Assembly: GCA_002633005.1 (NCBI GenBank)
Contig: NMRA01000201.1
Span: forward strand, 1-64,000
Reading direction: 5' to 3'
Source of the DNA: Phoronis australis
Lineage: Eukaryota; Animalia; Phoronida
DNA: 64,000 nt
The position numbers and the translations under genes were made by a program. Below the pieces are notes generated by a model. The model saw only the letters and a list, made by a program, of their open reading frames with translations. It had not been told where the DNA came from and did not search any database. Positions 21,913 to 62,414 of the stretch are shown here, piece by piece; the first letter of the stretch is position 1; each line of letters opens with the position of its first letter.

Positions 21913-22114
21913 ATGGCTTCTAGCAGCTGCCTGGTCAACGGCGTGGGTGGCGATGACGTGGGCATGAACATCCTGCGTGTGTTGGAGCGCGGTCTACTCA
22001 TGACTCGATTCTACCCTAAAAAGAAGCCAGAGAAGCGGACGTTTCAGGTGAAGCTGGAGACCAGGCAATTAGTCTGGCTTCGAAACTATGGACAACTGAA
22101 GCCGGAGGGTACAG
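21913..22114 (+). CDS. PLCG1: PLCG coding exon 1 ([10 protein letters not shown]...[37 protein letters not shown])
   Basis: ATG 21913, donor GTGAGT. An upstream acceptor ttcagcag near 21861-21868 implies a 5' UTR intron. Confidence 0.93.
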
Positions 22115-40100: not shown

Positions 40101-43100
40101 TCAGTTTGCTCTGTGTCAACAGTGAAGTGCAATATTGTCATGATAGGTGAGGAATTATGGCTAGACAACCTTGTTTTATGTCACTGTTTGTCTTGAAGAC
40201 CCCAAATAACGGTCAAATGACTTTTGAACATGTTAAATAATAATATGTATCATTGATCGACACAAACATATCATCCCTTCCTTTACTCCTGGCATTAGCT
40301 AATTACGCCAAACTTCAATTGTAACACATGTGAATGTGGTTGTTGGAGTATGTTTTGACCATCATTCTGATCACACAAGTAACATAAATTGCCAAAATGC
40401 GATGAATGGTTAGTTTTATTATTAACTTACAGTTGTCTACATGATGGCAAGAATCTGGTCTTCTATTCAGACGCCTATTTAATACAACTAGTTTTGGCCT
40501 TTCATTCTTTTTTCTGTCTTCTCACAGTGAAGCAGAGGCATGAAAAGGCCACTTCAGTTATCATTTGACAACCGTAGGTTTCAGTCATTAAATCGTGTTG
40601 TCTTGATGTTGTTAAAGTTTTGGTAAAAATTCTCCATTTTGGGACAGTCTCCAACCTTGAGCAAAACAATAAAATTTAATTTTCTGTGTCCCAAATTGGA
40701 AATTTCTTACCACACAGGGAATATCTAGGTAGCCAAAACACCTTAAACAAAAAGTCCGTTTAAGGAAGGCTTTAATTTGTCAGTTATTGTTCTGAAGTTG
40801 TCTTAGCTTTTCTTCTTCAACCCAAATGTTCTCACCAGTTCTTTGTTTACAGTTGACTTGAGGTTAGTCAAGGAGATACGAGCGGGGAAGAACTCGAAGG
40901 AATTTGAAAAATGGTCGGATGAAGCGCGCAAGATAGATTCGTCAGTTTGCTTCGTCATACTCTATGGGAGTGACTTCAGGTTGAAAACTCTGTCACTAGT
41001 AGGTCAGTGCTCCGTTATCTAATTATCTCTTTAAGTCCTTTATTGATAAAAAAGTTGAAATTAATGACAATTTGATGTTTTGCTCATATTTTCCTGCGGG
41101 CATTGTTAGGACTTACTACATTTCCACTTAGTCAACATATTAAATGGTTTGTGGGTAGTGACCTATAAAACACTGACTCCGCAGGTGAAACAACTTTAGG
41201 CAATAATTGTTGTAATTACTATTGAGACTACATGGAAAAAATCAATTCAATTTGTAAACTTCAGAGCGCGTAGGTTTAAGTAGAGAATAAACTTTTGAAT
41301 ATCTTAGCATCATTGACTAATTGTTGGAAATGTTATCCCTATCCATATTTGTGGCTAATATGTTTTACCCTAAGGTGCAAAAACCCCCAAGTGCAAAATG
41401 GTAAATTTACTAACACAAGGCGACCTCTTCCTGTAGGATGTCTACAAATATTTTGAAAATGTGATGCGACAAAAGTTTGGTTTAAAATAATGAAGGTGTG
41501 ATTTTCAATGCAAAATGTATTCGTGGCGAATTTTCCACTTGCACGAGCGTACACACCTGCGAAATTTCATATTCCCACCAATTGGTTTCACCAAATTTGC
41601 AGGTATGTCCCCACTTAAGCCTAGACGTAAATTTTAGAAGTGGTCCACAATGGACCGTTTTCGCGCAGCACCCTTCCGCTGGCTAAATGAAAGTTTCAAA
41701 TAGTTTCATTGATAGCCAAGTATAAGCATTAGCGTATGATCAATGCATGAAAGTGGTCCTTTAATCTTGGTCCCAAAGATAGTTTGCCCACTATGGTTCG
41801 TTTTGTTCACTAATAGCAGAATGCACTCTTGTCGTTAGTCTGTACAGAAACTGACCATATTTGTCAAAATTTATTTGTTGCACACAGCCTCCACGCGGCA
41901 AGAATATGGCTACATGATCTCAGGGCTGCAACACCTCGTTAAAGAGACGCAGTGTTCCTCCTACATGCTGCACGTGGAAAGGTGAGTGCCATTTCTCTCC
42001 TGATTAAGGTAAAAATTCTTCAATTTCAGACGAAAATGATTGCTGAGGTTTCCATTTTTCTATTCTTCAGACGTTTACTATATCATTGTAAACACTCACA
42101 AGTTACCAAATGTTGTTTGCTGTACCTTACAAAACATGTTAAAAGCAATGTAAAAAAAGTTGCTTTCTTTGAGAAATTTAATAACTTTACATGTCCGCCG
42201 TGTCATGTCTGAAGAATTTTTACCGTTAGTACAACAGTTGACGGTATTGAAATACTCTCCCATATGGTAACCTTGACAATGCATAATTACTTTGTATAAC
42301 TGGCTGTTACAATATAGTCAGAGACTAAACAGCTAAACAAATATCAATTAAGCAAATAAACACTTCTCGTTAGTTGCTTATCGGCTTGTTACAATCATAT
42401 AACGAATGGCATTGAATGCCCGTGACATTCTCTGCGCAGTTCCTTGCCGGATTTATTAATTTTGTCAAATAGGTTTTTACTAAGCAGACAAAGACACTTT
42501 CTTGTTTTCAGATGAATTTGACATAGTGACTCCTAGTAGCCATTTTTATTATTTGCAAGTCTGTTTTTTGGTGTCCATCTGTTTATTGGCCAAACCATTC
42601 TAGGAGTCGGTATGACCATGGCTGACGGTTTTCAAAAGTTTTGACTACTGTGGCGTTAACTAATGGCAGTTTTGCTTTTTCGCAGCTGTTTCACCTAAGC
42701 CCCTGCAAGGTCTTTCTGACATTACGCAAGTCTATTTCTATGAAACTGACATTGTATGATGACAACTTTTGGATGTGTCTGACTATCACTGTACCCCCCT
42801 AGTGGCTTTTTTGTGTCTACTAATGAAAGAGTGATTCAGTCAGCTCTGGGGCTTTATTATTGCTGTGACAATTACTCTGATGAGTGTTATTTCTGTCACT
42901 CTAATTGCCATTTGGTATTGCAAAAGTATTAAGAGAATGTTGAATAATGCCATGTCTATGTTTTTTATTTTTGATTTTCGACATGGGAATAACCTTTCGT
43001 AGATCAACTGTCAGCCTAGTGAAAACCAATTTGAATTGTTGTGTTACTTTTAGATTATTGGGTTTCACTGAGTTTTGCATAATTCAGTGATTTACAGAGG

Positions 43101-46100
43101 CCCCACGTGTATCTCTTCAGGCACGTTACACTCTGTTTATCAGAAAGTAATTGCGGTCATAAAAGACCATTTCATACTGACTTAACTCCGGTCTCCACGT
43201 AACTTGCGAAGTTAATTAAATCGTTCATACCATCTTCGATAGTGAACGGACATCAAAGTTAACAGTAGGTGACGCTGATGTCATTCAAGAAATCGCAAGG
43301 TGGCGTTGATGCGTCACGTCCGTGCTAACATTTTTTAATGTGACAATTTGAGAACATTTCCACGTGCTAATTGACATAAAATGTATTTCTAATTTCATTC
43401 ATTATTATTCAAGTAAAATATTAGCAACTGTTAGCGACAACACTGCCCTTTAGTTGTTGACGATAATAGTTGCGCCTGGTGATAACTTTAATGGGACTGA
43501 AGTTGACCGTTCATACCGCACTGCAGCATCAACATTCCGCCGTTAGATCCAACTGTTTACTGCGAAGTTAACTGGCATTGTAAACACATCAATCCAGAAC
43601 CAAAGTTAACCGTTCATACTGACCACAGCTCCTCATATCATTGCCACGTCGACGTTAGTATGAAAGGGCCTAAAGTATCTCACACTCTCTAGTAATTGGC
43701 TTACTGAGAATTACCATCTATAAACAATTGTTGGTCCTCAGCAATTTTCAGTATTTTCAGCATGAGAAGTTAAGTTCATGTACGACCCTAGAAAATGTAC
43801 AAATTTGGTTAACTTTGGAATATCATATCTGAGAAATGTCTGATCGAATTCCTATGAAGGTTTTTATATATTTGACTTAATACACAGACTAGTCACTGAA
43901 GTCCTACATAACCTTGAAGGCATTAGAGTGCACCATCTACCTGGAATTTGAGGAGGGTTAATGCTGTAGTACTGTTTACTCAGCTTGTGAACATGTTGTT
44001 AAAGAAAAAATGTTAGGCCTGGAACATAAGCCGTGGTTTGTTTCACTAGGAACTCTGTTGCAACCTGTCAAGAGTGTTTGGGGTGGCTACCTTTGTGTCG
44101 GTTTCTGCAATTTTTTGGTATGATACGGGTATTTTATTTTAAAAATTGGATATTGGTATAGGTTGCTTTAAACTGATGTGAACTTTCTCTCGACTTTGGG
44201 GCATCTTTGTCCAACGCAGGTTCACGAGTAGGACAAAAATGCCTTGCCAAGACTCAATGCCAGTGTTTTGTGGAATATAGTTGAAAATGCACACAAATGC
44301 TGTTGGTTCTCATATCACTTGAGAGTTTGAATAGTATTGAGAACTAGCGAGGAAATGGAAAAAATTAAGCTTGTGTAAACTCACTGAGAATTTGACAAGA
44401 CAAATGAAACCACTTGATACCATAATAAATTGCAATGTAAATACTTGACTTAATTACCACACAATATGGCCGACAGGAGAAATTCTGTTTTGTCGATTTT
44501 TTTCACAAATAAACAAAGATCAAGAAAATTTCAGATGTCATAACATGACATTTGGTGAAGGTTCCATCATAATTTGTAGAAAAGTAATCATCTTTTGAAG
44601 AATGAAAATTTTAGGAATTTAATTGTTTTTGTGCAAAATAAGTGGAAAATTACAGTAGCTTTCATACATTTTTGAAAGTACATGATATAAGACCAGCTTT
44701 CACTGATAAAGTTATCTTAATCCTTTCAATTTAACTTGTTCTCAGAAGTAAAATGGGTCGAGTGGATGTGAAAGTTATTGATCGGCTGCATGAAGAAATA
44801 CTGGATGTGATCTCGCATGGGAAACATATTTTTGTGCCACTATCTTAATTTCATTCGTGTTCTGTAGTAACCATTAGTTACCTGTTTGTTTTGCTACATT
44901 TACGTTTCAACATTTCTTCTCAAACTACATCATTATCTGTGTTTTCAGTTTTGATTTTCTTGTGAACAATCATTTAATTTTACTATCATGTCTAAAACCA
45001 AGGTTTAGCATCAAAAGCTACCCCACCATTGAATCAACTGTGAGCTCATAACAATTGAAAGCAGTCCGATGATATGTTGAATGGCTGTTGTAGAGGATTT
45101 ATTACGTTATGTAGTACAGAGTACAGCCAATCAGAGCATATAGTAGCAATTCTCCAGTTACTGAAATTTGGGACACTTAAATTTAAGATGAAATTGATGT
45201 TATTTGATTCTGAAGATTGGGTGATTTTGGTGTCCATCATGTTTCTCAAATATCTGACTCTGATTTGTATGAAGAGTGTGAAATTGTTTCTGACTGGTGA
45301 TGTGTTTCAAAGCGTAACCGCAAACCTTTAATTGCGCAGGCAGTATCCTACTACACTAACATTTAATTTAAAAATTTTAGACATCGGTTATTTTACCGTC
45401 TTTCTTGTTATTCTTGAATGTGAAATGGCCAGTATTGCCCATGACTAAAATAAGTCAAAAGCTCAAACTTTGAGCAAAATAATTCATTTTTCACTGTCCC
45501 AAACTGTAGAGTTTTTACCGTAATAATCTTCCATTGTTTTGACCATGAGAAGACGTTCTCGGTGTCCCATTGTTTTAGTTGGACTAAAAATGAGTTGCGA
45601 TGAAAGTTTTCAGTCATCCAGTTGAGTCATAGTACAAGAATCAATAAATCTATTACTGGACTTACGGTACGTGGAAATGGCTACGTTGCGTCCTCCTCAG
45701 GACTTCATCAGGCCACTGAGTTGTCACGTGAATTGTCATGTCATCTGTCGTACAGTTTCCGCGGGATTCTCTTCCACGTACCGTAAGTCCAGTAATAGAT
45801 TTATTGATTCTTATAAAAATGAGTTGCGTTTGTGAGGGCTGCAATAGCACACCGGTGCCATTTTCCTGAATTTTGTCAAACGTGCTGATATGACGTGATT
45901 GAGTTCATGAAATTCGTGTGCAATTTGCTGACATGAACTTATTGAGGGCCTAGTTTTGGTGGCGAACACACAAAAAGTTCATTTGACAAGGTCAGGACTG
46001 CTGTTCATGTGAAATGAAATTGAAAATGGGTATTCTCCAATTTTCTCAGGTTGGGAAAATGCATTTCACGTCATGAAATGCAGCATTTATAAAGGAATGT

Positions 46101-49100
46101 TTAAAGATGCTGGCAACATGTCTACTGTAACTCTTCACCATTCAGTCGTCAATATTTCGTATAAGTGAAATTTCACGTTGTCAAGTTCTCAGCAAAAATA
46201 GATTTTAAGACAGGTTAACTCTCAGGTTATCTTGTGATACAACAGGTTGAGTTTGTGAGTTTGATTCTGTGTTGGGGCTAATCTCAGAAAACCACTTTTG
46301 TCACCCATGCTGTCACATTAATTAGTATATTTCACATTTACGTTTTGAAGCAGCATTACTGCAGACAAGTGAAATTTTATGTTGTCAAATTCCTCATCGA
46401 AAATAAACATCAAGAAAGCTTAAGTCATATTATCGGTGGTGACGGAAGGCTACTCTGTTTAGCCGACTTGACGGCAAATTACGAGTCATTTTGTTTGAAT
46501 ACTTTTGGTTCGTACTGTAACGCTGTGTTGTTCTTCTTTTAGATGGCTGAGGAAGGAGTTCTACAGCATGGAGAATCCAAAGACAAACACGTACGTACTA
46601 TCATGTCGATGTCTTAACATTTATTGTGATATTAGGGGAGGCTTTTAGTCTAATCACGTCTGTGTATTCAGGGGAACAGTTCGTCTAAGAAAATGCAAAT
46701 GTTACTGAATTGCATAATTATCCTGTTTCTAGTGTTTGCTTACTTCTTCTGGATAAGAAATTATATTTATTTAGTAATCTCATGTACAGTTCCTGGAAAC
46801 GTATCTGAACATATGCATATTGGTTGGGGGGAGGCAATGGCCACCCAGATTTAGGGAAAATTTGCACAAAATAAGAAGAAAATCAGGCAGTGGGACATAC
46901 CAATAGTGGGCATTTACGACGACAGGAGGATGAACTCGACAGTGACAGAGGAGAAGCAGTTGACGAGTTTGCAACCAAGGGTGGAATTAGTATGATGGTA
47001 TGATGACTAGAGATGAAACTGGTGCCGACGGGAGGTCAATTAGCCACACATACTTTGTTCACTAGCGAGTCAGACCTTGTGTTTGCTCAGTGGAAGTGAA
47101 TGCAAAACCAAGCCCTTTGCTGGTCTGTCCATGGATGGTGGATCTGTACCAGGAGAACAACAATAAGCAAGAAAAAATGCATCACCAAGATGACTAGAAA
47201 TTTAATCGTACTAAGCGACGTAACATCAAAAAAGGTATCTCCCTCTGACAATACCTTGGTGGATATACAAATATTGATTCGCTCATTGTAGGGTTTCATT
47301 AAGGGACCTCAAGTCATGGTTGCCAAGGGTCAACTACAAAATACCCACCAGCAAACTGAGAGAAAGTTACCAGGTAAGGGCAGTGTAATAACACAGTTCA
47401 CCAAAAGAGGGAGCAATAAAGGCCAAACTGTCAATCTCATGGTGTGTTTTCATTTGCAGAGGCTTGTTTGCAGCTTGATGTTCATTGGTAGCCATTTAGT
47501 TAAGATTAAGGTAAAAAAATCAAATTTAGGACAGTCTCTAAAAATTAGGACTCAAGCAGCAATTGAATTTTCTTGATTCTGAACTCCCATTTTGTTTGTC
47601 CACTCAGTCAATGATTGCATTGTCCTCCTCTGACCTTTTTCACTGTGTTTAACTCTAACCTTTGCCATGGTCTTTCAACTCTGTTTTATAACAAAATGTA
47701 CTAGTCTGACCTAAAAATGTAATTCAACTTTAATAATGATAACTTAATCCTGACCTTACTTAGACATGGGGTTCAACTTCGACCTATATCATGTTGTTCA
47801 TGAGAAGCTATTACACATTAACAGATATCTGTCCCATTAGGCCCTGTATGCTAGAAGCTTTGCAGCAAATTTTGCTTTGTTCTGGCTAGCACACCATAGT
47901 CATGTAAGTATAAGTGGAGAGAGACAAATTCTGGAGGCCGTTGTTGTCAAACAAGTAGTCCAGCAATTGCTATTTCTTTCCAAAAGGTTTCTTAATTCCT
48001 AACAAAATCGATGGGCTTATGTGCTAAAAATGACGATCAATCTATATTTTCCGGACGTAATTCATACTCTTCGATTTAAGAGTGTTCAAGCTCACCTCAG
48101 GCGTCAGCTTGTACAATTACTGTTCCTAAATTGATGACTGTAAGAAAAATAAGCAAAGTCAATAAGGCTGGGCTCAAAGCTCATTTGCCATACGCAACAT
48201 GATAGTCTTGTACTTCATCTCACTCAAGGGAGATCAGGACAAAAGAGGTTGATAATGAACTGCTATTGCGTTGAAATGGAAACATACAGAGGTTTATGGG
48301 AAGGTCAACTATTGACCAGGCCCGCCAGATGGAGGCAGCACAGGTCTTGCTGTTCGCAGTTCACATCGTTCATTTCAAAATAGGAACTGAAATTTTGAGG
48401 TGTTTTTTAAATTTGTTGTCAGTCTGTACACTGTGCAAAGCTTTTTGTCCGTTGTGTTTCACTGATGATTTTCTTTAATTGGACGATTTTCCCATTTTCA
48501 GGTGGTTGAGCCCCAGACCAGAGAGATAGGCTTTGAATCATTTTCTATGTTATACAACAATCTAGTTTACGTACCCCAGGTAATTAGCCATTTTCCATTG
48601 ATTGCCGTAAGCTCCCATTTTCAAACAAAGCATCTTGCAGGTAATTTTTACTTTAAGTGTTTTATTAAAGTGGCCTTTTCAGTGATAATTCCACATCAAG
48701 TTTTCAAGAGGGCCCTCACAAATACGACAGGAAATACAATAAGTATTATAAAACAAGACTAACACAAAATTTACATTTAGCTGTAGAAACGTATGTATAG
48801 TACAAACCAAAAGTATTCAGAAAAAATGACCTTGAATTCCCGGTCTTGACAGCTGGGCGGAGGAGTAGTCTTCCATCTTTACCAAGAATGACAGGAAAGA
48901 TAGTAAGGTAGCTTGATCATTCAGTAATTAGAATTTTGCTGGCCTAATAGTTATTACCAGTCCTGTTTGCTGTTAATAGAACTAACCATCATGACAGGGA
49001 AATGGTATTTTGTCTGATTACTTTGGCCTGGTACTGTATGAAGTGCACTGAGCTGCGTATTTGCACTTACAGATAATTGGAATATTCGAGTAACTAGTGT

Positions 49101-52100
49101 TTTTGTTAGCCTGGTCTGTTCGACGTAGTTCTGCAGTGCCCATCTGCAAATCAATGGTCACATACCGTAAGTTTGGTGGTTGAAGCGTACCTTGGCTCAG
49201 TAAGTGAATGGACCGCTGCACCTTTTCATTTCCAGGTGTATAGCGAACACTTTGCGCCATGTTTCGAGGCCAGTGAGACGATCACAGCACTTCATTTCCA
49301 GCAGTTCTTAGCCAAAGAGCAAAATGACCCCATAGCCAATGATCTTCAAGCAGTCAAGGACGTTATGAATAAGTTCCTCGATGACCCCTTTCGAAAGGCT
49401 GCTGGCTCTCACTTTACCCACCAAGAGGTAATAACTGATACATGTCATCCAACGTAATTTTATGTTGAAGCAATTAGTAAAGATAAGTAAAGACTCGGCA
49501 AAGACTAAGGTAATTGGCAACTTTCATCAAGTTCTTTGACATTTCATAAAATAACTTTTCAACTTTTCACTTTTAACCAATAAAAGTAAAGAATTCCTCA
49601 ATACTTGAAAATTGTATTTCAGACCTTGAAAAGTTGCACAATCGGTTATATTCACGCGACCACCATTTTTTTAATTGTTTTTTGTTTTAACATGGATTGC
49701 TAAAAATCTCAACTGCATGCGACGTTTTGTATGAACTATATTTATAATTATGCTAGGTATTGTTGCTCAGATTTTTTTATTTACCCTCAAACAACAAGAT
49801 ATCAGCCATCAAAGTCACTATCTAAAAACCTGTTCATCAGAACAGAAATACAGTGCTTGAGAAAAGAAATATAGCGGGAATGCAAAGATTTGTGAGTTAT
49901 CACTGAGAAAAATAACAAAAGTTTCTGGCAATGCCCACATGGTCCATGAGGGAGTAGATTGCCTGCCATCATTAAATGGTGGTGAAAACTGACACTGCTT
50001 TTTGTGAAGTACTTGGTGTACACATGACTCTGAAAAATGACTGGGCTTGCACAGTTTAGCTGTTTTACCATATTTTGGCTCCTAGTAATACATTTACCTC
50101 GTTTTAGCTCATGTATGCTGTTTTCCTTTATGTCGATAACCACAACCGTTAATTATGTACTATGTTATAAATTTCAGTTTATGTCGTTTATGTTTTCACC
50201 CCAAAACTCTGTGTGGGATCCTCAGTTCGATCAGGTGACTCAAGACATGAATCGACCTTTGACCCACTACTGGATTGCCTCATCACACAACACGTATGTG
50301 TTAGATTTATCTATGTGCGTATGTGGTGTCTGTAAGACAGTCTGTAAGACAGTCTGTAAGACAGTCTGTAAGACAGTCTGTAAGACAGTCTGTAAGACAG
50401 TCTGTAAGACAGTCTGTAAGACAGTCTGTAAGACAGTCCCTACTGAAGATTTTTACACGTCCACTGTCTGATACTTCTCTTGTCTGATTGGCAGAAACGT
50501 AGTGTAATAAGTTCCCATATAGTGTTATGTTGACCAACTGGCTCTAACACCAGATGTCGCTATTCACGAGCTGGCTAATCAATTCCTGTAGAACCCCTAA
50601 ACTGTACCCACAAAGAGAGAAGACGATGTCGGTGTATCAAAGTGCGTGAGACCAAGCTAAACTAATATTAGATGGAAAAATCGGGGAGTCAGTGAGCATT
50701 TTGTACAATACAGACCCATCCTGTGGGAAAATCTGATCATGTCCACCGCGAGAGAGCAATTAAGTGATTTACAGCACTTCATAAATCTGTCCTTTACTAT
50801 TAGTATTGTTTTTTGATTTTATTTGGGCCCAAAAAGTCAAAATGATATCTTACTAAACATGGCTTCTCTTGTAACAGTACTTGGTGTATTGTTTGTCCCT
50901 CTATTGCCTCCTTCCTTGATATCTCGACACTATACAAATGAAAATGGACCTATCCTGAAGGTGACATTAACATTTGTTTTCCTGTAGGTGTCAAAATAAG
51001 CCAAGCTCACTATTCGGTGTGTAATAGACACAGTTGTGACTAATTCTACAACTTTGAGTGTGTACTTTGTTCCGTAGGTATCTGATGGGTGACCAGTTTC
51101 AGAGCGAGTCATCTGCCGAGGCCTATGTCAGGGCACTACGAATGGGCTGTCGGTGTATCGAGCGTGAGTATTGGTCCATCTCTACGAGCCATGAATATGT
51201 GGGTGGCAAAGCTGAAGCGAGTTATTCGCAGCCATTAGATCAATACAAGTTATGGGACCCCAGAAAAATGCCCAAATTCATCTAACTTCGGAACATCTTA
51301 TCTCAGAAATGGCTGATCACATTCATATGAAACTTTCAGATACTGTCTCTCAAAATGTTGTTGAGATTTTTTTTAATATGCCACTTATGCATGAGGAGCT
51401 AACAAATAATTAAATACAAAGTTGCATAAAAAGGAAAATGAAATGATAAGTGTAGAAAACTGTAACAGTGTTTTTGAAATCTCATCTTGTCATTCAAAAT
51501 AGATGTTATTGGTATCATAGTTTTGCTATGAATGTACTTTGTTTTTTGCTTAATTTCTAAAAAGACATGCTCACGTGACATGATTAATGTCAAAAATCAT
51601 TTTCTACAAGCTTACTGTTTTCAGATAATGTATAATTTTGCGGAGTTAGCATCTATAGTTTTGTTGATATTTGGTAAATGCATACACTAGTCAATAATGT
51701 CCATTCGTAAATCCACTTTGACTAAGCTGATGGGCAGTAGTTGTGGGGTGTGTTCTGTAAAGCAAGTTGTGAGATGAGCGGTATCGCGTAAGCTCACACC
51801 AAATAAAAGTTGCCATGTGTTTCACTTGTAAGCTTAAGATTTTTTTAATGTAACCAAAACGGCTGCCACTTGATCTAACCGTTTACTCATATCTATGATA
51901 CACTGAATGACAGTCTGCTTGACATATTACTACAGATTGTATGACATTTTGTGTACGTCTGCTGGCGGTCCTGCTAAGTATAATATCCCACAATCCTCTG
52001 TGTATATGACGTCTCTCGCTATCCATAAAAAGGTCAATGTTCCTTATAACCAAACCTAATTTTTATTTGGAGCAAGCCTGTTGCACACAGCTCTGTTACA

Positions 52101-55100
52101 TTAAGTCTTCCTCACGCCACAATTACCTACGGTTGTAACGAAAAAGAAAGACGTTTTGCTGCATTTTTTGGTATTTCAGCAACCCTTGTGGCATTTTAAT
52201 TTGTATTGCATTTTTTGATAGTGGATTGCTGGAATGGGCCAGATGGTATGCCGGTCATCTGGCATGGCTACACACTGACCACTAAGATCAAGTTTGAGCA
52301 AGTACTTAAGGCCATCAGGGACAACGCGTTTCTCACCTCCGAGTAAGTTAGTGCTTAAACGATATACTACAGACCATGTGATTTCTCGTAAAATTGAAAC
52401 TGGACAAGGTTTTATTTTGAGTTTCAGCTATGCTATTTTCTTGTTAAGTATGGCCTTATTTTGACATTGTGGACCTAGTCGAATAAAATTAAAATGCGAA
52501 TATTGATTAAAAAAATGATGTTAAGGAGGCCAGCTCTTACATAAAAATAACTTATTTTTAATTGCTTTGAAAATTATTACCAGGATATGGATCTGATCAA
52601 TCTTAATTGTTCTCAACTCCACATGACATCACTCTGGTCAGTGAGTAAGGAAGGAGTTAAAGGCATCAGTTTTTTACCACCTTGCACATTAGTTTTGAGA
52701 AATGTGTGTAGTTAAAGCTATAATAGCTTCGTTTTAATGTCAACATGGTTGCGAATACTTCCATTATGTTCCAACCATCTGTCAAGAAGAAACTTTTTGA
52801 TTTAGACTAATATGTTAATAAAGCTGGCCTCTAATTGTCCCTTGCTTAGAAATAATTTCTGGCCCTGGGAAGGTCTGGCAATTTGTTACCACTCGAGACC
52901 AGGCTGGGTAAGCTGGTGTGATTACACAGGTCATTGTATTTCCCGAGCATGGTCTCGAGCAATAACAAACTCTCAGTACTTCCCAATTCCAGAAATCCCT
53001 TCTAACTAAAGAACAACTTGATGTCAGTTTTGTAAGAGTAAGTGATCTATCTCTTTTTCTGACACAAGACTGCTCCTCAATACAACAATGATCCTTTCCA
53101 GGTGTTTCTACATTTTTGTTGGTTTTTATCAGGTATCCTGTCATCTTGTCTATAGAGAATCACTGCCTGTTACCACAGCAAAGAAACATGGCCAAGGCGT
53201 TTAAAGAAATATTTGGAGGTTTGCATTAAGTTAACAACCAGTTTTTATTTGACGTTCCGGTCCTATTTGTTATCATCATCATGGAAATGTTGTCCGTAAA
53301 CTAGTCAAAATGCTACCGCCTAATATTGTTGTTCTTTATTTTTTCATTGATAGTGAGGTTTAATTTAGGTGTCATTGCTTACGGTATAATGCAGTTTTCC
53401 AAGTCATTACTACTGGTAACTCTTAAGGCACTACGTTTGTTAAAACCTTGAATGTTTTACTATGGACTCCTTTGTTTTGGTTTGTTACTTCGTCAAGTTT
53501 ACGCTTTTTATTACACCCGATAAAGGAATGAACCAATTGAAGTTAGTGATTGTTTTAAAAGGAGGATTTGCTGCTGCTTACTTGGTCATTCCAGTTTAAG
53601 TTTGTAATCTTGACCAAGGATCTCAACTTAATCTAATTTAGCGCTCTTGGGTGATTCATGACTGGATTCTCATGTGGAATATGTGAATGTAATTAGTTTT
53701 AACGCGTGACTTTTCAATAATTTGTGCATAATCACTCAGTGTTCACAATAAAACTAACGCACTTTTTTAGATTGGGTCTTTACTTAGTTAAGGCTGCTAT
53801 AATCCTGCCTTCCGTTCAATAAACTAACTTTTGATGTGGTTTCTGGACTGATACTTCCTTATTGCTTGAGATCATGCTTGGCACATGACAAATTAACTTG
53901 CCGAGCCTGGTCTGAAGCAACAACGAAAAATCATCTCTAATTTGGGACCAATTTCGGAACGCTAAATGCTGTAAATTAAAAGTTAGTTTTTACCACGGAA
54001 GTCTAGTTTATAGCTATAATTATATCTGTACACTGCTCGCTGTTTTCGTGTTTGAGTAGTTCTCCATGACCATCATCATTTCGGTCGTTGCAGACATGCT
54101 ACTTACCAAAGTTTTGGACGAAGATGCCACACACATGCCCTCACCTAACCAACTGAAGGGAAAAATCATTCTCAAGGTAGGCACTGATTTTATTACAATA
54201 TTACCAACATCATCATCATTTTCATCGGCATTTATCTAATGGGAGTAGGATTGGCATTGATTTACATTTAGTGGTAGTTTTTAAAATTTCTATTTCATAC
54301 AAGATGTGGCACTGACTGCTATAGTTATGTCATAGCTTATTTTTTAGTTTTTATTTGTACTCGATATTTATATGTACAACACAAAATAATTCTTGATTTT
54401 TTTTACATGATATTGTATGCTAATTATATGTATGTTTATATTTTGGTAATCTTGTATATATCACTAAGATTCTTGGTACTTTTGTTTAATTACTAGTGTA
54501 AGTCTTGTTAGGTGGCCTCTTTTTATTCTGAGGATGATGTTGGCACATCAAAACATGTCAACACTGCTAAATACATCTCGTTATTTTTCGTAACATGTAT
54601 TTATGTCCTTATTTTTAATGCCTGGGCCTAAAAGTCACTTGTCTTACATTATATCTTCTGCGTTTAACATTTAAAAAAGTAAGCATAGGTCATGAAGACA
54701 CATCATCTTGAAACTATATTGACACTGCTGTGAGACTTTAGCTCTGCGATGCTCTTTTTGTCGAATGTTTAGAAGCCAAATGACATGTTTTTCTGCCTAA
54801 TTATGTCAAATGGTGTAATTTTTTTCATAATGGGATATGAAGCTATTTTCTTGTTAACAGCTGTGCTGGGTCATGCAACACTTTGGAAGATAAGTTTGAT
54901 TGTTGCATGATATCAAAAACCTTGTTCAGTAAGTTCTATATAACTTACATGTTGCTAGGATCCTGATTTTTAAACTCTGTTTGTCACTCTAACAGCACAG
55001 GAAATTACAAGAGGGAGAGGGCACAGAATGGCGGGAACAGTTGCCAGCAGACGACAGTGCGTGTAAGTCTAGACAAAACCTCTTAATTGTTCGCTAACAT

Positions 55101-58100
55101 CGACTGTACATAGGCTTTGAACTTGGTTACATTCAAAATGATGTTCATTTCTGCATTTCTGGTTACCTAGTGTATTCATTCTCCCAAATAAGACAGGACT
55201 GTATTCCATAATGCAAAACACTTCCAACACACTTGTACCAGGTAATCTGCATTTATGGCATAGACCTTGTGAATTTTCTACCGTACTTCATCATTCAAGC
55301 CTCGACATCATATGAGTTCAGTGACGGGCAAAATGCTCGCCTTTCTCTAGCATTATTTTACGTAGTCTTTCGTGATCTCTCTTTTCTCACAAGAAACTTG
55401 CTCTACCGAACGCATTCTAGGTCATAAGCGGATCCAGGGGGCGTCAAGAGGTCTGTACCTCCTTTTTTCCTTGATTTTAGTGATATCAAATCTAAAATTT
55501 TCAAATAGTTGACTTGGATCCTCCATTTTTAAAAAAAATCCTTGATCCAACCCCCCTTTTAAAAATCCTGGATACACCCCTGTAGGTATAGCTCAGCAGC
55601 CATGGCTTTTCATTTTGGCTACTCTCAGCAAGAACGTTTTGTATTGTATTTTCCGATTGAAAATGGTGAAATTTTCCTGTAGAAATTCAAGTGATCTGCT
55701 AGACATCTTGTTTGCGTATCCGAGAACGATTGAGTTTACGATGCTCAAATAGTATTCTACCATCTTTCTCTTCTGCTTGTTAGTGATTTGCTGGATGTCA
55801 CCAATTCATTTTTTTCTTCAGCTATTATGTTGGACTCTGATCTGCTTTCATCTGTCAGAAATGGTATCCTGTACTTAGAGGACCCTATTGACCATGTGAG
55901 TAGGACTTGTATTATGACAGCTCATCCTTAACATAGTGTGTTTCTGTTAGACAAGCAATGTGATTTTTTGTTATTTTTGTTTTGTTTTTGGAGTACTTTG
56001 TTGCACTGTGCCATCAACATGCAACGTCCAAATGGCTCACCCAAATGTGCAACATGAAAAAAAGCTTTTTTCGATGAAAGGAATCGCGTTCCGTCTTTGA
56101 CCTATCTTATCGAGTTTGCAGCCACAATCTTCAAGTGTTATGCATTGATTGCTGCTACTAGTGTATCATCGGTCACTGATGTTTGCTTTTGACCTTTGAG
56201 TTGGAGAGACCAATCAAGTTGAGACTGTTTATGGATTTGCTAGCTGTGCGAGGCTCTGCTCGTTCGCACCAGTATTGCATACCCTAACAAATCAATTAAA
56301 CAATAGCCATCATGCTCTCTGTGATTCGTCTTCACCAGGAATGGTTCCCGCATTACTTTGTGCTGACTGCAAGCCGTCTGCATTACTCTGAAGAGACGAC
56401 GTCCAGTCACCAGGCTGACGAGGACGAGGCTGATGCAGCAGATACACCGCCCTCTTCTGAAGAGGTAGACATGTTTTGTAATACTCCTAGTTGTTGAGAG
56501 TCAGTGTGACTACTTACCTATCTAGGAGAACAGTGAAAATGAGAATAATTACAGTTGTTGTACTATCCATTCACGAACAACTCTTAGAAAGTAGAAAATG
56601 ATGAAACTTCTTAAAATTTTTTAATTGATATTGATCACTGTTTATGCAATTTGAATGTTACTTTGGCACATCAATTTTGTGGTCCTGGCAAAAAACAAAT
56701 CTTGAAATAAGGCATGTTAATGCTTTGTTGGCTACAGTTATACTGTGGTCAAAGTTCATAGATGCTAGTTGCCACTTATAAACCCTTCTTATGTTATCTT
56801 ACGTTATACTAAGGTTGTGTTGGATTTTATAAAAATGGCCAAATTTGGCCAACTTCAGAACATCATATCTCACAAATGGCTGATCGGATTCAAGTGAAAC
56901 TTTCATATACCATGCTTTATGCACTGTTCTCAAAAATATTATTAGGAACTGTGTTTCAAATGTTCCACTTTTTGCGTGAAGGGCTATCCGAAAATATAAC
57001 CTGTATGATTTTCATGAAAAATTTTTTGAGATCTCACTTTATAAAATTTGATCATGTTATTGATGCTGTTGTTTTGCTATCAATGTACCGTTTTTTGCTA
57101 AATTTTACTAAAAAGGCATGGTCACATTACCCAATTAATAAGAGATTAATAAAAAACCAACAAGCAAATTCTACAAACTTATTGCTTTCAGAAAAATATA
57201 TTTTTACTGAGTTAATATCTGTAGTTTTCCAGATATTCTGCTGAGTGTGCAGAGTTGTCAATAAGTTACTACATAATCTAAATGAGTGTTTTTATCTCTT
57301 TGTGGCCCTCAAATTCAACCAAGACATTTTAACTAGTGAGATTGTTGACGATTGGGTCCAAAGAAATGGTTTTGCAAAGTGAAACTTGAGCGTTTTGTTG
57401 ACTGACTTTAAGTCATCCTCTTATGTGCTGTCCAGGACATGCCAAATGATGAGCTGCACTTCAGTGAGAGGTGGTTTCATGGCAAACTGGAGGGGGGACG
57501 AAAGTGTGCCGAGCAGCTGTTGAAAGATTACGCCCCTCTCGGTGATGGCACCTTTTTGGTGCGCGAGAGTGAGACGTTCGTCGGAGACTTCACCCTGTCC
57601 TTCATGTGAGTCAACACTTAGGCATCCTAGTCAGTATAGGCTACTTGTTATGGTTGAGTCGTAATGAATTTAGAAAATGGCAGTTCGAAAAGAAGGCATA
57701 GTTGGAACACAGTCAATACATTTTCAAAGTCTTCATGAATCTTAGCTCAACAGACCTTACAGATGATTAGTTGACCAAAGAGCTGGTTTGGTGGTCCTCA
57801 TGGTCAACTTGCCTACCGATTGTTATCGCCAAGAGCTGACTGAAAATATACTGAAAACCAGAGAGCCCAACAAGTTCAGACCCACCAACAAACGTTGTCC
57901 TTTTTGATGTTCTTTGATCGTTTTATGCAATTTAGTTTAATTCAATCTTGTTACCAGTGCAATTTACTTGGCCACATATTCAATATCGTCTGTTGACAAC
58001 CGTGTTTTCTTATGGCCAAGAAGCAGACAATCAATTTATTATTGACAGGTAACTGGTTCCGTACATATTGCTTTGTATTTATCAATCAAAAAGTAAATTG

Positions 58101-61100
58101 GTTGAACAGGGTTATCACCTGCATGCCTACAGCATCTACAGGTGATGTATTGACTAACAGAGGATGTACTCTTTTGTCAACTTTTAAGAGGCATCTTTTG
58201 CACAAATCAACAAAATTCAATGAAGTTGGCAGATTGAATTTCACATCTGAAAAAGGTAATTGGCATACGTGACAATATGGTTGGGTTAAGAGTCACTATA
58301 TGCTCATTTTACCTCTGAATTGCTTCTTTCACTAGTGACAATATGGTTTGGTTAAGAGTCGCTATATGCTCATTTTACCTCTGAATTGCTTCTTTCACTA
58401 GTGACAATATGGTTTGGTTAAGAGTCACTATATGCTCATTTTACCTCTGAATTGCTTCTTTCACTAGTGACAATATGGTTTGGTTGAGAGTCACTATATG
58501 CTCATTTTACCTCTGAATTGCTTCTTTCACTAGTGACAATATGGTTGGGTTAAGAGTCACTATATGCTCATTTTACCTCTCAATTGCTTCTTTCACTAGT
58601 GACAATATGGTTGGGTTAAGAGTCACTATATGCTCATTTTACCTCTCAATTGCTTCTTTCACTAGGTGCCAGTGGCTGGTCTTGTGCTACTCGGTCTCAT
58701 GTAAACAAACAGGAAATTTGACTTAGATATTGTTGATATCCTCATATTGTAGGAACTCAAATGAACGACATTAAATAATAAGTGTCTCCTGGATTTAACT
58801 TAGACTTTCTGAAATTAGAGAATTATTGGTTTCTTTTTTACAATTTGAACTGTGTTGGAGAAATGTCTCATTTTGCATAATTTGTCTAATGATTCAGCAG
58901 CTCCTTGTCTGTCGCAAATGGTTCCTCTATGATGTTCTCATATATGCATATGCTAGAGAGAAGCTGCGAAAGCTGTGAAAACATACTCTCTGTGAGGGAT
59001 GGTACCAGAAGTACCTGAATTTTACCAAAGGATGCGGAAGAGCTCTCCTTTAGCTTCAAACTCTGAAACAAAGGGCAAATTTATTTAGATAGTATTGAAC
59101 AATAACTCTTCTCTCCATACATCTAATGGTAGGAACCGTTTTGTTTATCTAATTGTGGTGCATGGCCATATGTTTAATTAAACAGTTGACTACTATATTT
59201 ACTGAGAAGTTGCTTAAAGTGGAACACTTTTCCGAAACATAGCTTCATTCCCCATCCAAATACACACGATTTTGGGGGTGGCCCAGCTAAACTTAGAAGC
59301 TTTGACATGGTTCCACCCACTTATGCAGATTTTATCAAAAATCTTCTTAGTGTGTGATCTCACAATGTCAGGTCCACTGGAACTAACAAATAGTGTGGTG
59401 TGTTTATCAAATGTCTTTTTTGATGATAACAATCAAAAACCAGAAACATTGAAACTATGACTGTGTGGGATCCATAGGCTTATCAAATCCAGAAACTACA
59501 AACCATTATACCCAGGTTAGAAAGAAAGCATTCTTAAATATGTGTAAATTATGGGATGCAAACAAGTAATGTTTACCCATAATCCTGACCTTAACTAATA
59601 GATTTCTGTGAAAAATGTCTTGATTTAATGTATACTTCTCAGGTTTCATAAAAGGTACCTGGTTACAACTGAGGCAAAAATGATTACAAAATGCTCATTT
59701 TTTTCAGTTGTCAGGAGTTTCTAAGAATGGTGCGAATGTCTGTTGTAACTTTTCAAGATATTGCATTACATTAGCTTTAGTACTAACAGAACTTGAAAAT
59801 TGTGAAGCTTTTTTGTGGCATTAATAACACTTCGTAATAAAATGAGAAATTGAAATTTCTCTTGGTCTTCCACATTATGTCCTAAACGAATGCATATTTC
59901 TGTCCCACTAAGAGGTAAACAGACATACATTTAGTTCAGTCAGGTGACCATAGGGGTCGCCATTTCTTTGTGGGAGTTCTATGAGTGATAGTAGTTCTTA
60001 TGTTTTGAAGGTGGCAGGGCAAAAACAACAATCACTGTCGTATCAAGTCGAAGCAGGACCGTGGTCAGATCAAGTACTACCTGATCAGCGACATGCCCTT
60101 CGACAGCCTCTACTCGCTTATCACGCACTACCGCCAGTATCCCCTGCGGAGTCGTGACATGGAGGTTATCCTCAAGGAACCTGTGCCGCAGCCAGAGAGC
60201 CACCTTGGCAAACCGTGAGTATAGCTAGATCTGGTCGGATTTTTGTTTTTTGTGGTCTGAGGTTCTTTGATGAGGGCTCTTGGAAAAGTTCAGACCTTTC
60301 TTGCCGAAAACAATCACTTTCTCACCCAGATGTCATGCACACGTGTATTTATTCATTGTACGAGGCTACTTTTTTGAAGCTATTAATGTGAGGTAATGCT
60401 GGTATCTTTCCTATTAAATAGACATTGCGTAATTATTCAAAAATAATCACTTCATAAAAATAAATTCCAAAATTTTTGTTAACAACGTTGTTGAAAAACT
60501 TTCAACACTTTGCATTGTAGCTCATCCTTGCCAAACAAAATTTTCTGAACAATATTCATGACTAAGATTTTTTTGAAATCCTTTCACTTTCAGAAATGTG
60601 TTTGTGTCTGTTAATGTTTCAGCAAGTTATAAGACTTTGGTGATAAGCATTTGCCAAAATCTTGTACTTGCTTATATCAGAATTTGTGTCTTTGTGTATT
60701 TCTTAGCAAATCAGTCTGCTTTTCAGCAAGTGATGAGCCTTTGGTACCAAACGTTTACCAAAACCTTGGTTGACCAAATTTTTTTTGTTTCCGTCCTGAT
60801 TTCAAAATACGTATTTTTTTCAGCTAGTTATAAGCCATTATTAAGCAAAGATTTGGTAAATCGTGTACATGTCAGTTGAAATTGTTCTTTGTCTCTCAAC
60901 ATGTCAAGATACGTCTGCATTTTAGCTGGTACAATGATGAGGTTGACCGAACAACGGCTGAAGACATGCTGAAGCGAATCCCATGTGACGGAGCATTCTT
61001 GCTCCGTCATACGGAGAGTGACCGCCTCTCTTATGCAATATCGTTCAGGTGATGACGCATGTCACCGCCCTGAGTTTTTATCTCTACAAATTCTTTTGTA

Positions 61101-61996
61101 TCTCTGCTTTGCATTTCCCTGTAGGGACCACAGACAAAACTCCACCACCTTTGCCCATTTATAGTCAAATGCATCAAGCCACAGACTGGTTATTTACCTT
61201 TCTATGTATGGAATGTAGGCAGAGCTTTGTCTGTCGATCCCTTCGTCAGTATAAACTTTCTTCTCTGAACTTTGCTTGAGATGACTTTAGTTGCACTTGT
61301 CTGTGACTGACTGTCAGAGAACAAAGATTTATACTGTTAAATCTATACACTCGTCAGCCATTGTGCAAACCATGGTTCTTATGTTTTTGTTTTAGGTTAT
61401 TTCCTGTTATGTCCGCGTTCTTGTGAAAGCATTTGATGACTGTGTATTTGGCTACAATTGGCAGAAGCCAGTGTTTTGTTCAACAATTTTTGCGAAAAAT
61501 ATAGTCACCCACTTTTCAGAAATTTGGCTTTTGTCTTTAGAAATGAGCCACTTAAAAGTATTTTCAAATAAATTTGAACAATTGAATTGATGAATCACTT
61601 ACTGCTATTGTCAAAAACAAAATGTCAAACCTTTGTTTTGTGTTGTACTTCTGTTCCATGCAGTTGAGAATTTTTTTTAACGATGCACTAAAAATCCTGA
61701 GTTACTTTCTTTTTCTCAATCCTAAACTATCAATGAAGTATTATCAATAATCGTGGTGTGCACGGTGACCTCTGCTTGACCTCTGCTCTTGTCCTACTAA
61801 CATATTGCGGACTTGCCTCCCCTGTGTGTTTAAATTAACAGCATGGTGTTTTGCATGGCAGATGGTATCACGAGAATCTGAGTCGGGAAGATGGAGAAGA
61901 CATGCTCAGTAGGATACCGCGTAACGGTGCTTTTCTGATTCGTCGCCGGGTGGATGAGAGATATTCAAATGCCAAAGAGTATGCCATCTCGTTCAG
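21913..61996 (+). CDS. PLCG1: Phosphoinositide phospholipase C gamma (PLCG1-like), multi-exon gene, 3' end beyond window
   Basis: GT-AG exons spliced in frame give about 700 codons. Domains are nPH, EF-hand region (WLRKEF), X-box with both catalytic His ([13 protein letters not shown]; [20 protein letters not shown]), split-PH (KNGILYL-like), nSH2 (WFHGKL...[17 protein letters not shown]) and the start of cSH2. The symbol is assigned by homology; an invertebrate PLCg would be co-orthologous to PLCG1 and PLCG2. Confidence 0.96.
22675..23607. mobile_element. hAT-type MITE family (CAGTGGCGGATCTAGG...AATCCGCCTATG) with an internal tRNA-like segment
   Basis: Imperfect TIRs. Related sequence at 7038-7295, 34993-35155 and 55424-55582. 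Minus-strand A-box TGGAGCAGTGG and B-box GTTCGAGTC at 22921-22976. Confidence 0.6.
23816..25368. mobile_element. Non-autonomous hAT-like element
   Basis: TIR CAGGGCTCGACATTA / TAATGTCGAGTCCTG, subterminal GGACAA repeats, flanked by direct CAGTG. Confidence 0.7.
26335..26376. repeat. (AAT)n microsatellite
   Basis: About 14 AAT units, one interrupted. Confidence 0.9.
27000..27290. repeat. Old dispersed repeat (other copies ~30180-30500 and ~40385-40560)
   Basis: Shared ccaaatgtaatga...gtcta(t/c)...cagac(g/c)cct and tagcccaatacatctaaa blocks. Confidence 0.55.
27881..29989. mobile_element. 2.1-kb DNA transposon relic, possibly Sola-like
   Basis: TIR GGGCAATTCC/GGAATTGCCC, flanks AGTT/AATT, repeated internal motif GTAC(G/A)TCCGTCAC near 28148 (inverted), 28171, 28184, 29609, 29800 and 29963. 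Confidence 0.55.
33560..34946 (-). mobile_element. Degenerate non-LTR retrotransposon (RTE-X-like) reverse transcriptase fragment
   Basis: ORF 34596-34946 [33 protein letters not shown]...[17 protein letters not shown] matches LINE RT N-terminal motifs (NYRGITLL...QAGFR...DHIF). Decayed sequence continues leftwards and the left boundary is uncertain. Confidence 0.8.
36000..36480 (+). repeat. Dispersed repeat family (gaacatcatat(c/t)tcagaaatg...; copies ~43790-43870, 51255-51680, 56820-57245, inverted ~63150-63300)
   Basis: Shared blocks aacatcatatctcacaaatggctgatcggattc...gaaactttca and aaaacatggtcacat. Confidence 0.7.
40853..41002 (+). CDS. PLCG1: PLCG exon 2 ([49 protein letters not shown])
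   Basis: ttacag acceptor, GTCAGT donor, 150 nt; follows an 18.7-kb intron. Confidence 0.95.
41888..41981 (+). CDS. PLCG1: PLCG exon 3 ([31 protein letters not shown])
   Basis: acacag acceptor, GTGAGT donor, 94 nt. Confidence 0.9.
43164..43671. mobile_element. PIF/Harbinger-like MITE
   Basis: Imperfect TIR AGACCATTTCATACTGAC / GTTAGTATGAAAGGGCCT, A/T-rich 3-bp flanks, repeated internal CGTTCATAC. Confidence 0.55.
45636..45812. mobile_element. 177-bp MITE with perfect 41-bp TIRs
   Basis: aagaatcaataaatctattactggacttacggtacgtggaa at 45636-45676 and its exact reverse complement at 45772-45812. Confidence 0.85.
46543..46590 (+). CDS. PLCG1: PLCG exon 4 ([16 protein letters not shown])
   Basis: ttttag acceptor, GTACGT donor, 48 nt. 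Confidence 0.93.
47292..47373 (+). CDS. PLCG1: PLCG exon 5 ([27 protein letters not shown])
   Basis: ttgtag acceptor, GTAAGG donor, 82 nt. Confidence 0.93.
48502..48579 (+). CDS. PLCG1: PLCG exon 6 ([26 protein letters not shown])
   Basis: tttcag acceptor, GTAATT donor, 78 nt. Confidence 0.88.
49236..49427 (+). CDS. PLCG1: PLCG exon 7 ([10 protein letters not shown]...[12 protein letters not shown]...[18 protein letters not shown])
   Basis: ttccag acceptor, GTAATA donor, 192 nt. Confidence 0.92.
50178..50293 (+). CDS. PLCG1: PLCG exon 8 ([39 protein letters not shown])
   Basis: tttcag acceptor, GTATGT donor, 116 nt. Confidence 0.96.
50328..50438. repeat. 12-bp tandem repeat (GTCTGTAAGACA) x9
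   Basis: Perfect copies, starting 34 nt after the exon 8 donor. Confidence 0.97.
51078..51163 (+). CDS. PLCG1: PLCG exon 9 ([28 protein letters not shown])
   Basis: ccgtag acceptor, GTGAGT donor, 86 nt. Confidence 0.97.
52222..52342 (+). CDS. PLCG1: PLCG exon 10 ([39 protein letters not shown])
   Basis: tgatag acceptor, GTAAGT donor, 121 nt. Confidence 0.96.
53133..53218 (+). CDS. PLCG1: PLCG exon 11 ([28 protein letters not shown])
   Basis: tatcag acceptor, GTTTGC donor, 86 nt. Confidence 0.95.
54094..54176 (+). CDS. PLCG1: PLCG exon 12 ([27 protein letters not shown])
   Basis: ttgcag acceptor, GTAGGC donor, 83 nt. Confidence 0.95.
54996..55062 (+). CDS. PLCG1: PLCG exon 13 ([22 protein letters not shown])
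   Basis: taacag acceptor, GTAAGT donor (alternative GTGCGT after 55056), 67 nt. Confidence 0.88.
55822..55895 (+). CDS. PLCG1: PLCG exon 14 ([24 protein letters not shown])
   Basis: cttcag acceptor, GTGAGT donor, 74 nt. Confidence 0.94.
56339..56464 (+). CDS. PLCG1: PLCG exon 15 ([42 protein letters not shown])
   Basis: caccag acceptor, GTAGAC donor, 126 nt. Confidence 0.94.
57436..57605 (+). CDS. PLCG1: PLCG exon 16, nSH2 first half ([56 protein letters not shown])
   Basis: gtccag acceptor, GTGAGT donor, 170 nt. Confidence 0.97.
58269..58664. repeat. 66-bp tandem repeat x6
   Basis: Units start at 58269, 58335, 58401, 58467, 58533 and 58599, nearly identical. Confidence 0.97.
60011..60214 (+). 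CDS. PLCG1: PLCG exon 17, nSH2 second half ([67 protein letters not shown])
   Basis: ttgaag acceptor, GTGAGT donor, 204 nt. Confidence 0.96.
60926..61048 (+). CDS. PLCG1: PLCG exon 18a, cSH2 N-half variant a ([40 protein letters not shown])
   Basis: ttttag acceptor, GTGATG donor, 123 nt, phase 2-2, no stops. Confidence 0.92.
61862..61996 (+). CDS. PLCG1: PLCG exon 18b, cSH2 N-half variant b ([44 protein letters not shown])
   Basis: tggcag acceptor, GTAACA donor, 135 nt, phase 2-2, no stops; paralogous to 18a. Confidence 0.92.
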
Positions 61997-62223
61997 GTAA
62001 CAAAGAATACTTTTTTAAAGTTCTGCTAGAGTAATGGGACTTCATCGCAAAATGTCTTGTTTTTAAAAACTTATTGTCCATCAAATAGTGTGTCGCTTAC
62101 AAAGTCTGGCATTTTGGCAGCAAAATGTGTCTTGACTATTTTATAAACTTCAGAGAACATCGTAGTAAAGCTTGTTCCAAAATCCCATGATGTGTCTGTA
62201 GAACATTCATAAAAACTGGTAAA

Positions 62224-62414
62224 AAATTTTGTTTAATACTAAACCATTCCAGAGTCATCTAATGATGTAAAATTTTGTTTAATACTAAACCATTCCAGAG
62301 TCATCTAATGATGTAAAATTTTGTTTAATACTAAACCATTCCAGAGTCATCTAATGATGTAAAATTTTATTTAATACTAAACCATTCCAGAGTCATCTAA
62401 TGATGTAAAATTTT
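62224..62414. repeat. 46-bp tandem repeat x4
   Basis: aaattttgtttaatactaaaccattccagagtcatctaatgatgta units at 62224, 62270, 62316 and 62362. Confidence 0.95.

Follow-up and report, generated by a model that had tools for sequence, protein, structure and literature searches.

A duplicated exon in the cSH2 domain of PLC-gamma

Can a single gene provide phospholipase C-gamma (PLC-gamma) with two different phosphotyrosine (pTyr) pockets and choose between them by splicing? This question is raised by a stretch of 64,000 nucleotides (nt) of Phoronis australis DNA (contig NMRA01000201.1; hereafter, the window), in which the exon encoding the N-terminal half of the cSH2 domain of a PLC-gamma gene occurs in two tandem copies, 18a and 18b. 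In a preliminary description of this DNA, both were taken to be intact and probably mutually exclusive exons. The explanation that, as a whole, we consider probable is that they form an intact tandem pair in which 18b is spliced and 18a is likely a minority alternative, that the pair is likely ancestral to lophotrochozoans, and that the enzymes produced differ in their pockets.

The gene lies on the + strand, starts at about 21.9 kb and runs past the end of the window. Exon numbers are those of the preliminary description; the upstream exons were located by tblastn with four full-length PLC-gamma proteins, which gave 16 upstream coding segments, and the gene start is the first ATG seen. The relevant parts of the gene are:

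60926..61048 (123 nt), + strand: exon 18a, short 'a' type, N-terminal half of cSH2, 41 amino acids (aa)
61862..61996 (135 nt), + strand: exon 18b, long 'b' type, N-terminal half of cSH2, 45 aa
60011..60214, + strand: exon 17, C-terminal half of nSH2 and the nSH2-cSH2 linker, constant, with a phase-2 donor (from splice joints)
57436..57605, + strand: exon 16, N-terminal half of nSH2, constant (from splice joints and the Pfam SH2 match)
21912..56464, + strand: upstream exons encoding nPH, EF hands, X box and split PH (from tblastn and translations)

Exon 19 is located past position 64000, outside the window. Both 18a and 18b are preceded by AG and followed by GT, are of phase 2-2 and have the final bases TCGTTCAG before the GT; the places, lengths, phases, ends and peptides first given for them are all borne out. 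The two exons match positions 1-40/41 of the 77 positions of Pfam SH2 with 33.5 and 32.4 bits (gathering cut-off, 21), and both align with residues 668-707 of human PLCG1 and 646-685 of PLCG2. The domain is identified as cSH2 by being the second SH2 domain in a gene that also encodes nPH, EF hands, X box, split PH and nSH2. No third copy of the exon was found in the window by a scan with a hidden Markov model (HMM).

The two copies have the same residue at 20 of the 34 codons outside the loop, and across these codons 79% of second positions and 38% of third positions are identical. High second-position and low third-position identity therefore point to an old duplication under protein-level constraint, in agreement, together with the open frames, with the preliminary description. 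An assembly or haplotype artefact, which that description had considered, is ruled out: a single DNA contig (2917 bp) from run X1 holds both exons, and these are strongly diverged from each other. This contig has two differences from the window, both in 18a and both synonymous; since the window may derive from X1, this is a separate assembly and not a separate sample.

Splicing of the two exons

Use of the exons was followed in three stranded raw-read RNA sequencing runs of one study (X5, X6 and X7), about 18-19% of each being examined, with junctions listed when supported by at least 3 reads per run. Exon 18b is the major form and is spliced between exons 17 and 19. The joint between exons 17 and 18b (60214>61862) is present in 13 reads (5, 6 and 2 in the three runs), and a further 18 loose read ends (7, 8 and 3) extend beyond 61997, where they start with G and then follow, without a change of frame, the conserved beginning of exon 19. 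The constant joints 56462>57434 (cut +2) and 57605>60011 are present in all three runs, the latter in 8, 12 and 3 reads.

Exon 18a, in turn, is likely a minority alternative. Eight partly aligned reads, distributed over the three runs, have sharp edges exactly at its ends, at 60926 or 61048/9: two leaving the exon in X5, two entering and two leaving in X6, and two entering in X7. The totals of partly aligned reads (17, 18 and 11) equal exactly the sum of repeat, 18b and 18a reads, the last being 2, 4 and 2. When depth is read in 41-nt bins, it is 0 before 18a and 2/2/3 on the exon in X6, the corresponding values in X7 being 0 and 2/1.5/0.4; in X5, unspliced reads are also present upstream of 18a. 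After the exon, depth drops to 0.05 in X5 and X6 (2 bases in the bin). These 2 bases past the donor correspond to one shared G per read, which fits exon 19, whose first base is G, and not 18b, whose first base is A. In total, 18a accounts for 8 of the 39 junction-type reads, that is, 21% (95% interval, 9-36%).

As to the partners of 18a, the 13 reads that enter 18b are all joined to exon 17 and none to 18a (upper bound 21%, at low power), and the four reads leaving 18a continue, without exception, into sequence outside the window stretch, none of them running into 18b. Judging by the read edges, 18a appears to be joined to exons 17 and 19, and it is likely never joined to 18b. The first step of the mechanism that we propose would thus be the splicing of 18a, like that of 18b, to exons 17 and 19. 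The mutually exclusive use initially proposed is supported by the absence of joined 18a-18b reads, together with the chiton isoforms described below; the partner exons of 18a are read from edges that fall exactly at the exon ends, in few reads. Run X8 (contigs whose RNA origin is a guess) contained no piece on 18a or 18b. Use of an additional AG at 61840-61841, which precedes the 18b acceptor by 20 nt, would change the reading frame; none of the 13 reads uses it.

Two exon types across lophotrochozoans

Relatives were drawn from three homology searches, the last represented by the best 120 of 1302 matches, and from a metagenome scan that gave 21 loci. Three large protein clusters are represented by 15 listed members of 81, 85 and 16, and the cluster count of 18 is exclusive of the Ptychodera, Dreissena, Diadema and Amphiura clusters. 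Among the matches listed and the metagenome loci, the lophotrochozoan exon falls into two types. Type a has 41 aa, with Ser or Thr at the position of R696 of PLCG1 in 11 of 12 exons, and is carried by Lingula, Chaetopterus, gastropods, cephalopods, Mercenaria and Solemya. Type b has 45-50 aa and Ser or Cys at 683, and is carried by Owenia, Paralvinella, Lineus, Tubulanus and the loci L007, L008, L013, L014 and L016, all five of which are placed among protostomes. Arg occupies the 696 position in 11 of 12 b exons and in none of 12 a exons. The 41-aa Ser form is also usual in arthropods, hemichordates and amphioxus, and anemones and vertebrates have Arg at 696.

Both types are found together in the chiton Liolophura, whose RefSeq isoforms (XP_064611127-35) exchange them at exactly the same segment as in the window: X1-X5 are of type b and X6-X8 of type a, and none of the eight has both or neither. 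The pair is conserved in this second species, and other lophotrochozoans show one type. Neither tblastn nor HMM searches found a hidden a exon beside the b-only loci, of which L007, L008 and L013 have both flanking exons.

Several other variations of this region were observed in the same material. Four Pacific oyster proteins (P0063, P0066, P0068 and P0070) have a 4-residue insertion just after the exon, pointing to an alternative acceptor or a micro-exon inside cSH2. PLC-gamma of the stony-coral type (P0210, P0213, P0219, L011, L015 and L017) has a very long acidic BC loop, with an exon of 55-59 aa. An identical or near-identical repeat of the region in P0157 (moth) and P0132 (sturgeon) is likely an assembly or annotation duplicate. 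Finally, two neogastropods (P0140/P0145; P0007/P0148) have two PLC-gamma proteins each, on different contigs and all of type a.

Age of the duplication

In a tree of the constant exons (577 columns), the window gene is sister to Lingula, with a Shimodaira-Hasegawa-like approximate likelihood ratio test (SH-aLRT) value of 94, inside lophotrochozoans (98), so that the DNA likely comes from a lophophorate. The exons, in turn, group by type. Against chiton a, Lingula, Chaetopterus, Pomacea and Mercenaria, the window 18a reaches scores of 140-151, as opposed to 112 against its own neighbor 18b, and 18b scores 149-151 against Owenia and L007. Type b forms one side of a branch with support of 96/98 (41 columns) and of 93/82 when the loop is removed (35 columns), and the loop-free 18a pairs with Lingula (97/76). 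The branch of 18a is fairly long in both exon trees (0.37-0.45). Forcing the two window exons together costs 25.3 log-likelihood units with loops and 21.9 without. The exon trees comprise the sequences that remain after leaving out most arthropods, corals, near-duplicate isoforms and the 45-aa exon of Dreissena and, in the loop-free tree, four further rows and one inserted Owenia residue.

Since both window exons cluster with exons of their respective types from other phyla, a single ancient duplication in the lophotrochozoan ancestor, followed by differential loss, is likely, though not proven. According to this second step of the proposed mechanism, exon a would have been lost in nemerteans, Owenia, Paralvinella and the loci L007, L008 and L013, and exon b in annotated gastropods, cephalopods, some bivalves, Lingula and Chaetopterus. 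A pair that is ancestral to lophotrochozoans would be more than 500 million years old, and third positions between 18a and 18b look near saturation. The trees do not tell whether a or b is the older.

Pocket residues and likely functional effect

It has been established that R675, R694 and R696 of PLCG1 hold the phosphate of pY783, that F706 lines the +1/+3 pockets, and that R748, R753, N728 and S729 affect the binding of cSH2 to the core (PMC3532599, available part). The C2 domain is held by the BG and EF loops, for which pY783 has been proposed to compete (PMC7004563, available part). In addition, R665W and R707Q illustrate that changes within the exon can shift activation indirectly (PMC7000336, available part). 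The swapped exon holds the pTyr arginines, the BC loop, position 687 and the equivalents of F706 and R707, and the mapped clamp residues lie C-terminal to it, in the constant part. The equivalents of R675, R694 and R696 are all present in 18b, whose BC loop is 4 residues longer than that of 18a; 18a keeps the equivalents of R675 and R694 and has Thr at 696, that is, two of the three arginines.

The pocket encoded by 18a is likely a working two-arginine pocket and not a dead one, because Ser or Thr at 696 is found in 11 of 12 a types and in arthropods, hemichordates and amphioxus. Two arginines and a threonine resemble the usual SH2 pocket. Since the clamp residues lie in a constant exon, the swap likely tunes pTyr-driven release and would act on basal clamping only indirectly. 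The third proposed step concerns release and not clamping: 18b would contribute a three-arginine pocket like that of vertebrate PLC-gamma, whereas with 18a the pocket would have two arginines and Ser/Thr and the BC loop would be shorter. Both enzymes would have the mapped clamp surface in common and would differ in affinity or kinetics for the activating phosphopeptide, the equivalent of pY783, and hence in their activation threshold. The two interchangeable cSH2 pockets postulated in the preliminary description are supported; as for the 'switch on autoinhibition' that it attributed to them, the pTyr pocket is indeed swapped, but the clamp residues (R748, R753, N728, S729 and the BG and EF loops) are constant. 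The Cys of 18a at the R687 position was considered as an activating change similar to R665W and was dropped, as this position varies freely in both types.

What governs the choice of exon

The intron between 18a and 18b measures 813 nt, both exons are multiples of three in length, and their joined reading frame is open. Enforcement by nonsense-mediated decay (NMD) is ruled out by these lengths and by the joint frame, and a steric block, which would call for a branch point within about 50 nt of the 18a donor, by the length of the intron, the AG located 20 nt before the 18b acceptor and a TACTAAC at 61795. No U12 incompatibility was found, the GT-AG donors differing from what we take to be the U12 consensus. 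The best candidate docking/selector pairings have joint energies of -19.7 and -19.5 kcal/mol, within the ranges of shuffled sequences (-16.7 to -20.8 in 12 shuffles and -18.1 to -22.3 in 6 shuffles, few in both cases). No telling repeats for such structures were found in the window, and Rfam gave three weak matches, all far under their gathering scores. The motifs that may be involved in the choice are the following:

61057..61061, + strand: GCATG, 9 nt past the 18a donor, candidate RBFOX enhancer
61841..61857, + strand: GCATG and TGCATG within the pyrimidine-poor 18b acceptor, candidate RBFOX silencer
61795..61801, + strand: TACTAAC, about 60 nt before the 18b acceptor, candidate branch point or QKI site

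TACTAAC, which we take to be a branch-point or QKI motif, has three copies in the 42-kb gene span. The three GCATG motifs (starting at 61057, 61841 and 61852) are the only ones between 60200 and 62400, and none of the 15 other exon segments has one within 60 nt on either side. Two GCATG occur in 0.04% of 30-nt windows of the gene span, a feature noticed post hoc. It has been described that, in mutually exclusive pairs of Caenorhabditis elegans, RBFOX represses from the upstream intron and activates from the downstream intron (PMC4165533, available part). By analogy, the GCATG motifs located within the acceptor of 18b and past the donor of 18a point to possible repression of 18b and promotion of 18a by RBFOX. 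The fourth and last step of the proposed mechanism is that exon choice would be regulated, not physically forced: 18b would be the default by virtue of its strong branch-point motif, and abundant RBFOX, found in muscle and nerve in other animals, would cover the acceptor of 18b and favor 18a via the GCATG past the 18a donor.

Similar motifs are present elsewhere. TGCATG occurs near the acceptor in 2 of 5 distinct b-only loci: at about the same acceptor position in one b-type locus (L016:1204-1209 and L021:1995-2000), and about 30 nt upstream in L014 (about 1538-1543). At b-only loci, the motif may be a vestige or may direct a regulated skip giving an enzyme like delta-19, the human PLCG2 product from which exon 19 is missing.

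Weighing the alternatives

Several points weigh against the explanation given above. The eight reads on 18a may represent only four molecules, the joint between exons 17 and 18a falls below the listing threshold (fewer than 3 reads per run), its partner exons being deduced, and the three runs come from one study, with partial sampling and small read numbers. Up to about 5 of 17 reads at the exon 17 donor have no placed partner, which is compatible with short overhangs. Three of the five distinct b-only loci have no GCATG motif within 60 nt of the acceptor, and the RBFOX motifs were spotted post hoc and are matches of motif alone. One could imagine that 18a is a decaying, leakily spliced relic and that only 18b matters, since 18a is the minor form, its branch is fairly long and several lineages appear to have lost a. 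We consider this quite improbable: the frame of 18a is open and its sites are intact although its third positions have diverged so far from those of 18b, it is 71% identical to the only annotated form of Lingula, both allelic differences in it are synonymous, and it is used at about 20% in all three runs. Use at that level is far above splicing noise. Even less credible is that the two are tandem cassette exons, with products containing both or neither also made and the latter de-repressed like human PLCG2 delta-19. Double or no inclusion keeps the frame, so NMD cannot clear such forms, and the search for a steric, U12 or docking-site block gave none; moreover, 8 of 41 such C. elegans clusters turned out to be tandem cassettes (PMC4165533, available part). 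Against this stand the 13 reads that enter 18b from elsewhere than 18a, with the bound on joined products already given, the four that leave 18a for sequence beyond the stretch, and the chiton isoforms, none of which has both or neither.

A further set of these adverse points concerns the history of the pair. The chiton isoforms are automatic predictions whose exon structure is deduced from proteins, and the chiton b form differs from 18b in carrying Ser at 696 and Met at 706. Both types are seen in 1 of 18 clusters, that of the chiton, and none of the 21 metagenome loci has two copies; the oyster and mussel exons do not fall clearly into either type. The division into a and b was drawn up once the sequences had been inspected, and the trees have only 35-41 columns. 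In approximately unbiased (AU) tests, p for a clade of the two window exons is a borderline 0.085 with loops and 0.024 without, p for a clade of the two chiton exons is 0.22, and p for both constraints jointly is 0.073. This weak rejection of own-species pairing would suit a pair that is real and mutually exclusive and that arose separately here and in chitons, the likeness between them being due to convergence or to retained ancestral residues. Only two species are known with both types, and the wide occurrence of the 41-aa Ser form outside lophotrochozoans means that a may be the ancestral state. Nevertheless, we regard separate origins as unlikely. The residue set of type b (Ser or Cys at 683, Arg at 696 and the longer loop) is the sole form seen in annelids, nemerteans and protostome loci, with the annelid Chaetopterus showing a, so that a patchwork starting from no ancestral pair needs several parallel changes; the support for the b branch, with and without loops, also argues against it. 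A single ancestral pair followed by differential loss thus remains the reading that we favor.

Known systems and significance

Tandem exon substitution is a known kind of arrangement, of which FYN is the closest case, and its occurrence in PLC-gamma appears new, no description having been found. As here, FYN (FynB/FynT) has homologous either/or exons in a signaling enzyme that contains an SH2 domain, and FYN duplicates kept one exon only, a situation similar to the apparent retention of a or b in the lineages considered here (PMC9741552; PMC2119231, available parts). Unlike here, the FYN exons correspond to the SH2-kinase linker and the beginning of the kinase domain, whereas 18a and 18b belong to a phospholipase and encode the entire N-terminal half of an SH2 domain, including the pTyr pocket. 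The regulation resembles that of egl-15 (5B/5A) and unc-32 (7a/7b) of C. elegans, either/or pairs under RBFOX control with UGCAUG-type elements (PMC4165533, available part). In egl-15, a 14-nt intervening intron forbids double inclusion; here the intron has 813 nt, and the regulation proposed is deduced from motifs alone.

Human PLCG2 exon 19 encodes aa 646-685 and is deleted in PLAID, the PLCG2-linked antibody deficiency with immune dysregulation (PMC6188132, available part). This exon, corresponding to PLCG1 668-707, is the same segment, end to end, as 18a and 18b, and it holds the disease positions R687/R665 and R707. In the available parts of the literature the human exon is described as single; its loss de-represses the enzyme, whereas here the exon is exchanged. 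The human tandem-exon catalogue does not mention PLCG in its main text, and PLCG1 was not found in the available part of PMC10802621. The preliminary description knew of no earlier report, and likewise no description of a PLC-gamma pair was found in the literature searched, although the supplements of genome-wide exon catalogues could list the case; the chiton pair is already present in RefSeq.

PLC-gamma is triggered through its cSH2 pocket, and the exon is a hot spot of human disease (the PLAID deletion, R665/R687 and R707). Two interchangeable pockets on one scaffold would constitute a natural experiment on the contribution of the third arginine and of the BC loop to pY783-driven release. 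The likely differential loss would explain why lophotrochozoan PLC-gamma falls into two types across phylum boundaries, and loss of this kind from an ancestral pair would mislead trees built on the cSH2 domain.

A duplicated linker in molluscs

In annotated mollusc isoforms, the segment of the cSH2-SH3 linker that carries the activating tyrosine (aligned by eye to Y775/Y783) exists in two or three tandem versions, which are used singly, together or not at all. This is observed in chiton (P0238/P0240 versus P0235), clams, oysters, scallops, mussels, abalone, pulmonates, Aplysia and octopus, the proteins concerned also including P0246-P0256, P0011/P0012/P0114, P0259/P0261, P0268-P0280 and P0281-P0290. 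Isoforms of Haliotis (P0261) and Octopus (P0273/P0279) omit the segment altogether, and the extracted annelid, brachiopod, nemertean, deuterostome, arthropod and cnidarian rows have one copy. In the window gene, this segment lies beyond the window end.

Judging from the mollusc duplication, the PLC-gamma switch may have been tuned by splicing more than once. It is conceivable, though doubtful, that lophotrochozoans have a spliced lock-and-key, in which both the pocket (18a/18b) and the linker exon carrying its ligand are duplicated and chosen by splicing. If so, one gene would build matched or mismatched pairs of pocket and peptide, and the activating kinases and the ease of switching would be set per cell type under RBFOX control. 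The pocket pair would then have been kept in full in few lineages, such as chitons and the organism of the window.

Other features of the window

The intron after 18b contains a 46-nt tandem repeat in four near-identical copies (62223-62406). Dispersed intronic repeats at 56800-57140 and 61451-61485 draw many reads of both strands from other loci. Lastly, a 12-nt tandem repeat at 50330-50440, in the intron following the exon that starts the X box, yields a spurious repetitive open reading frame.

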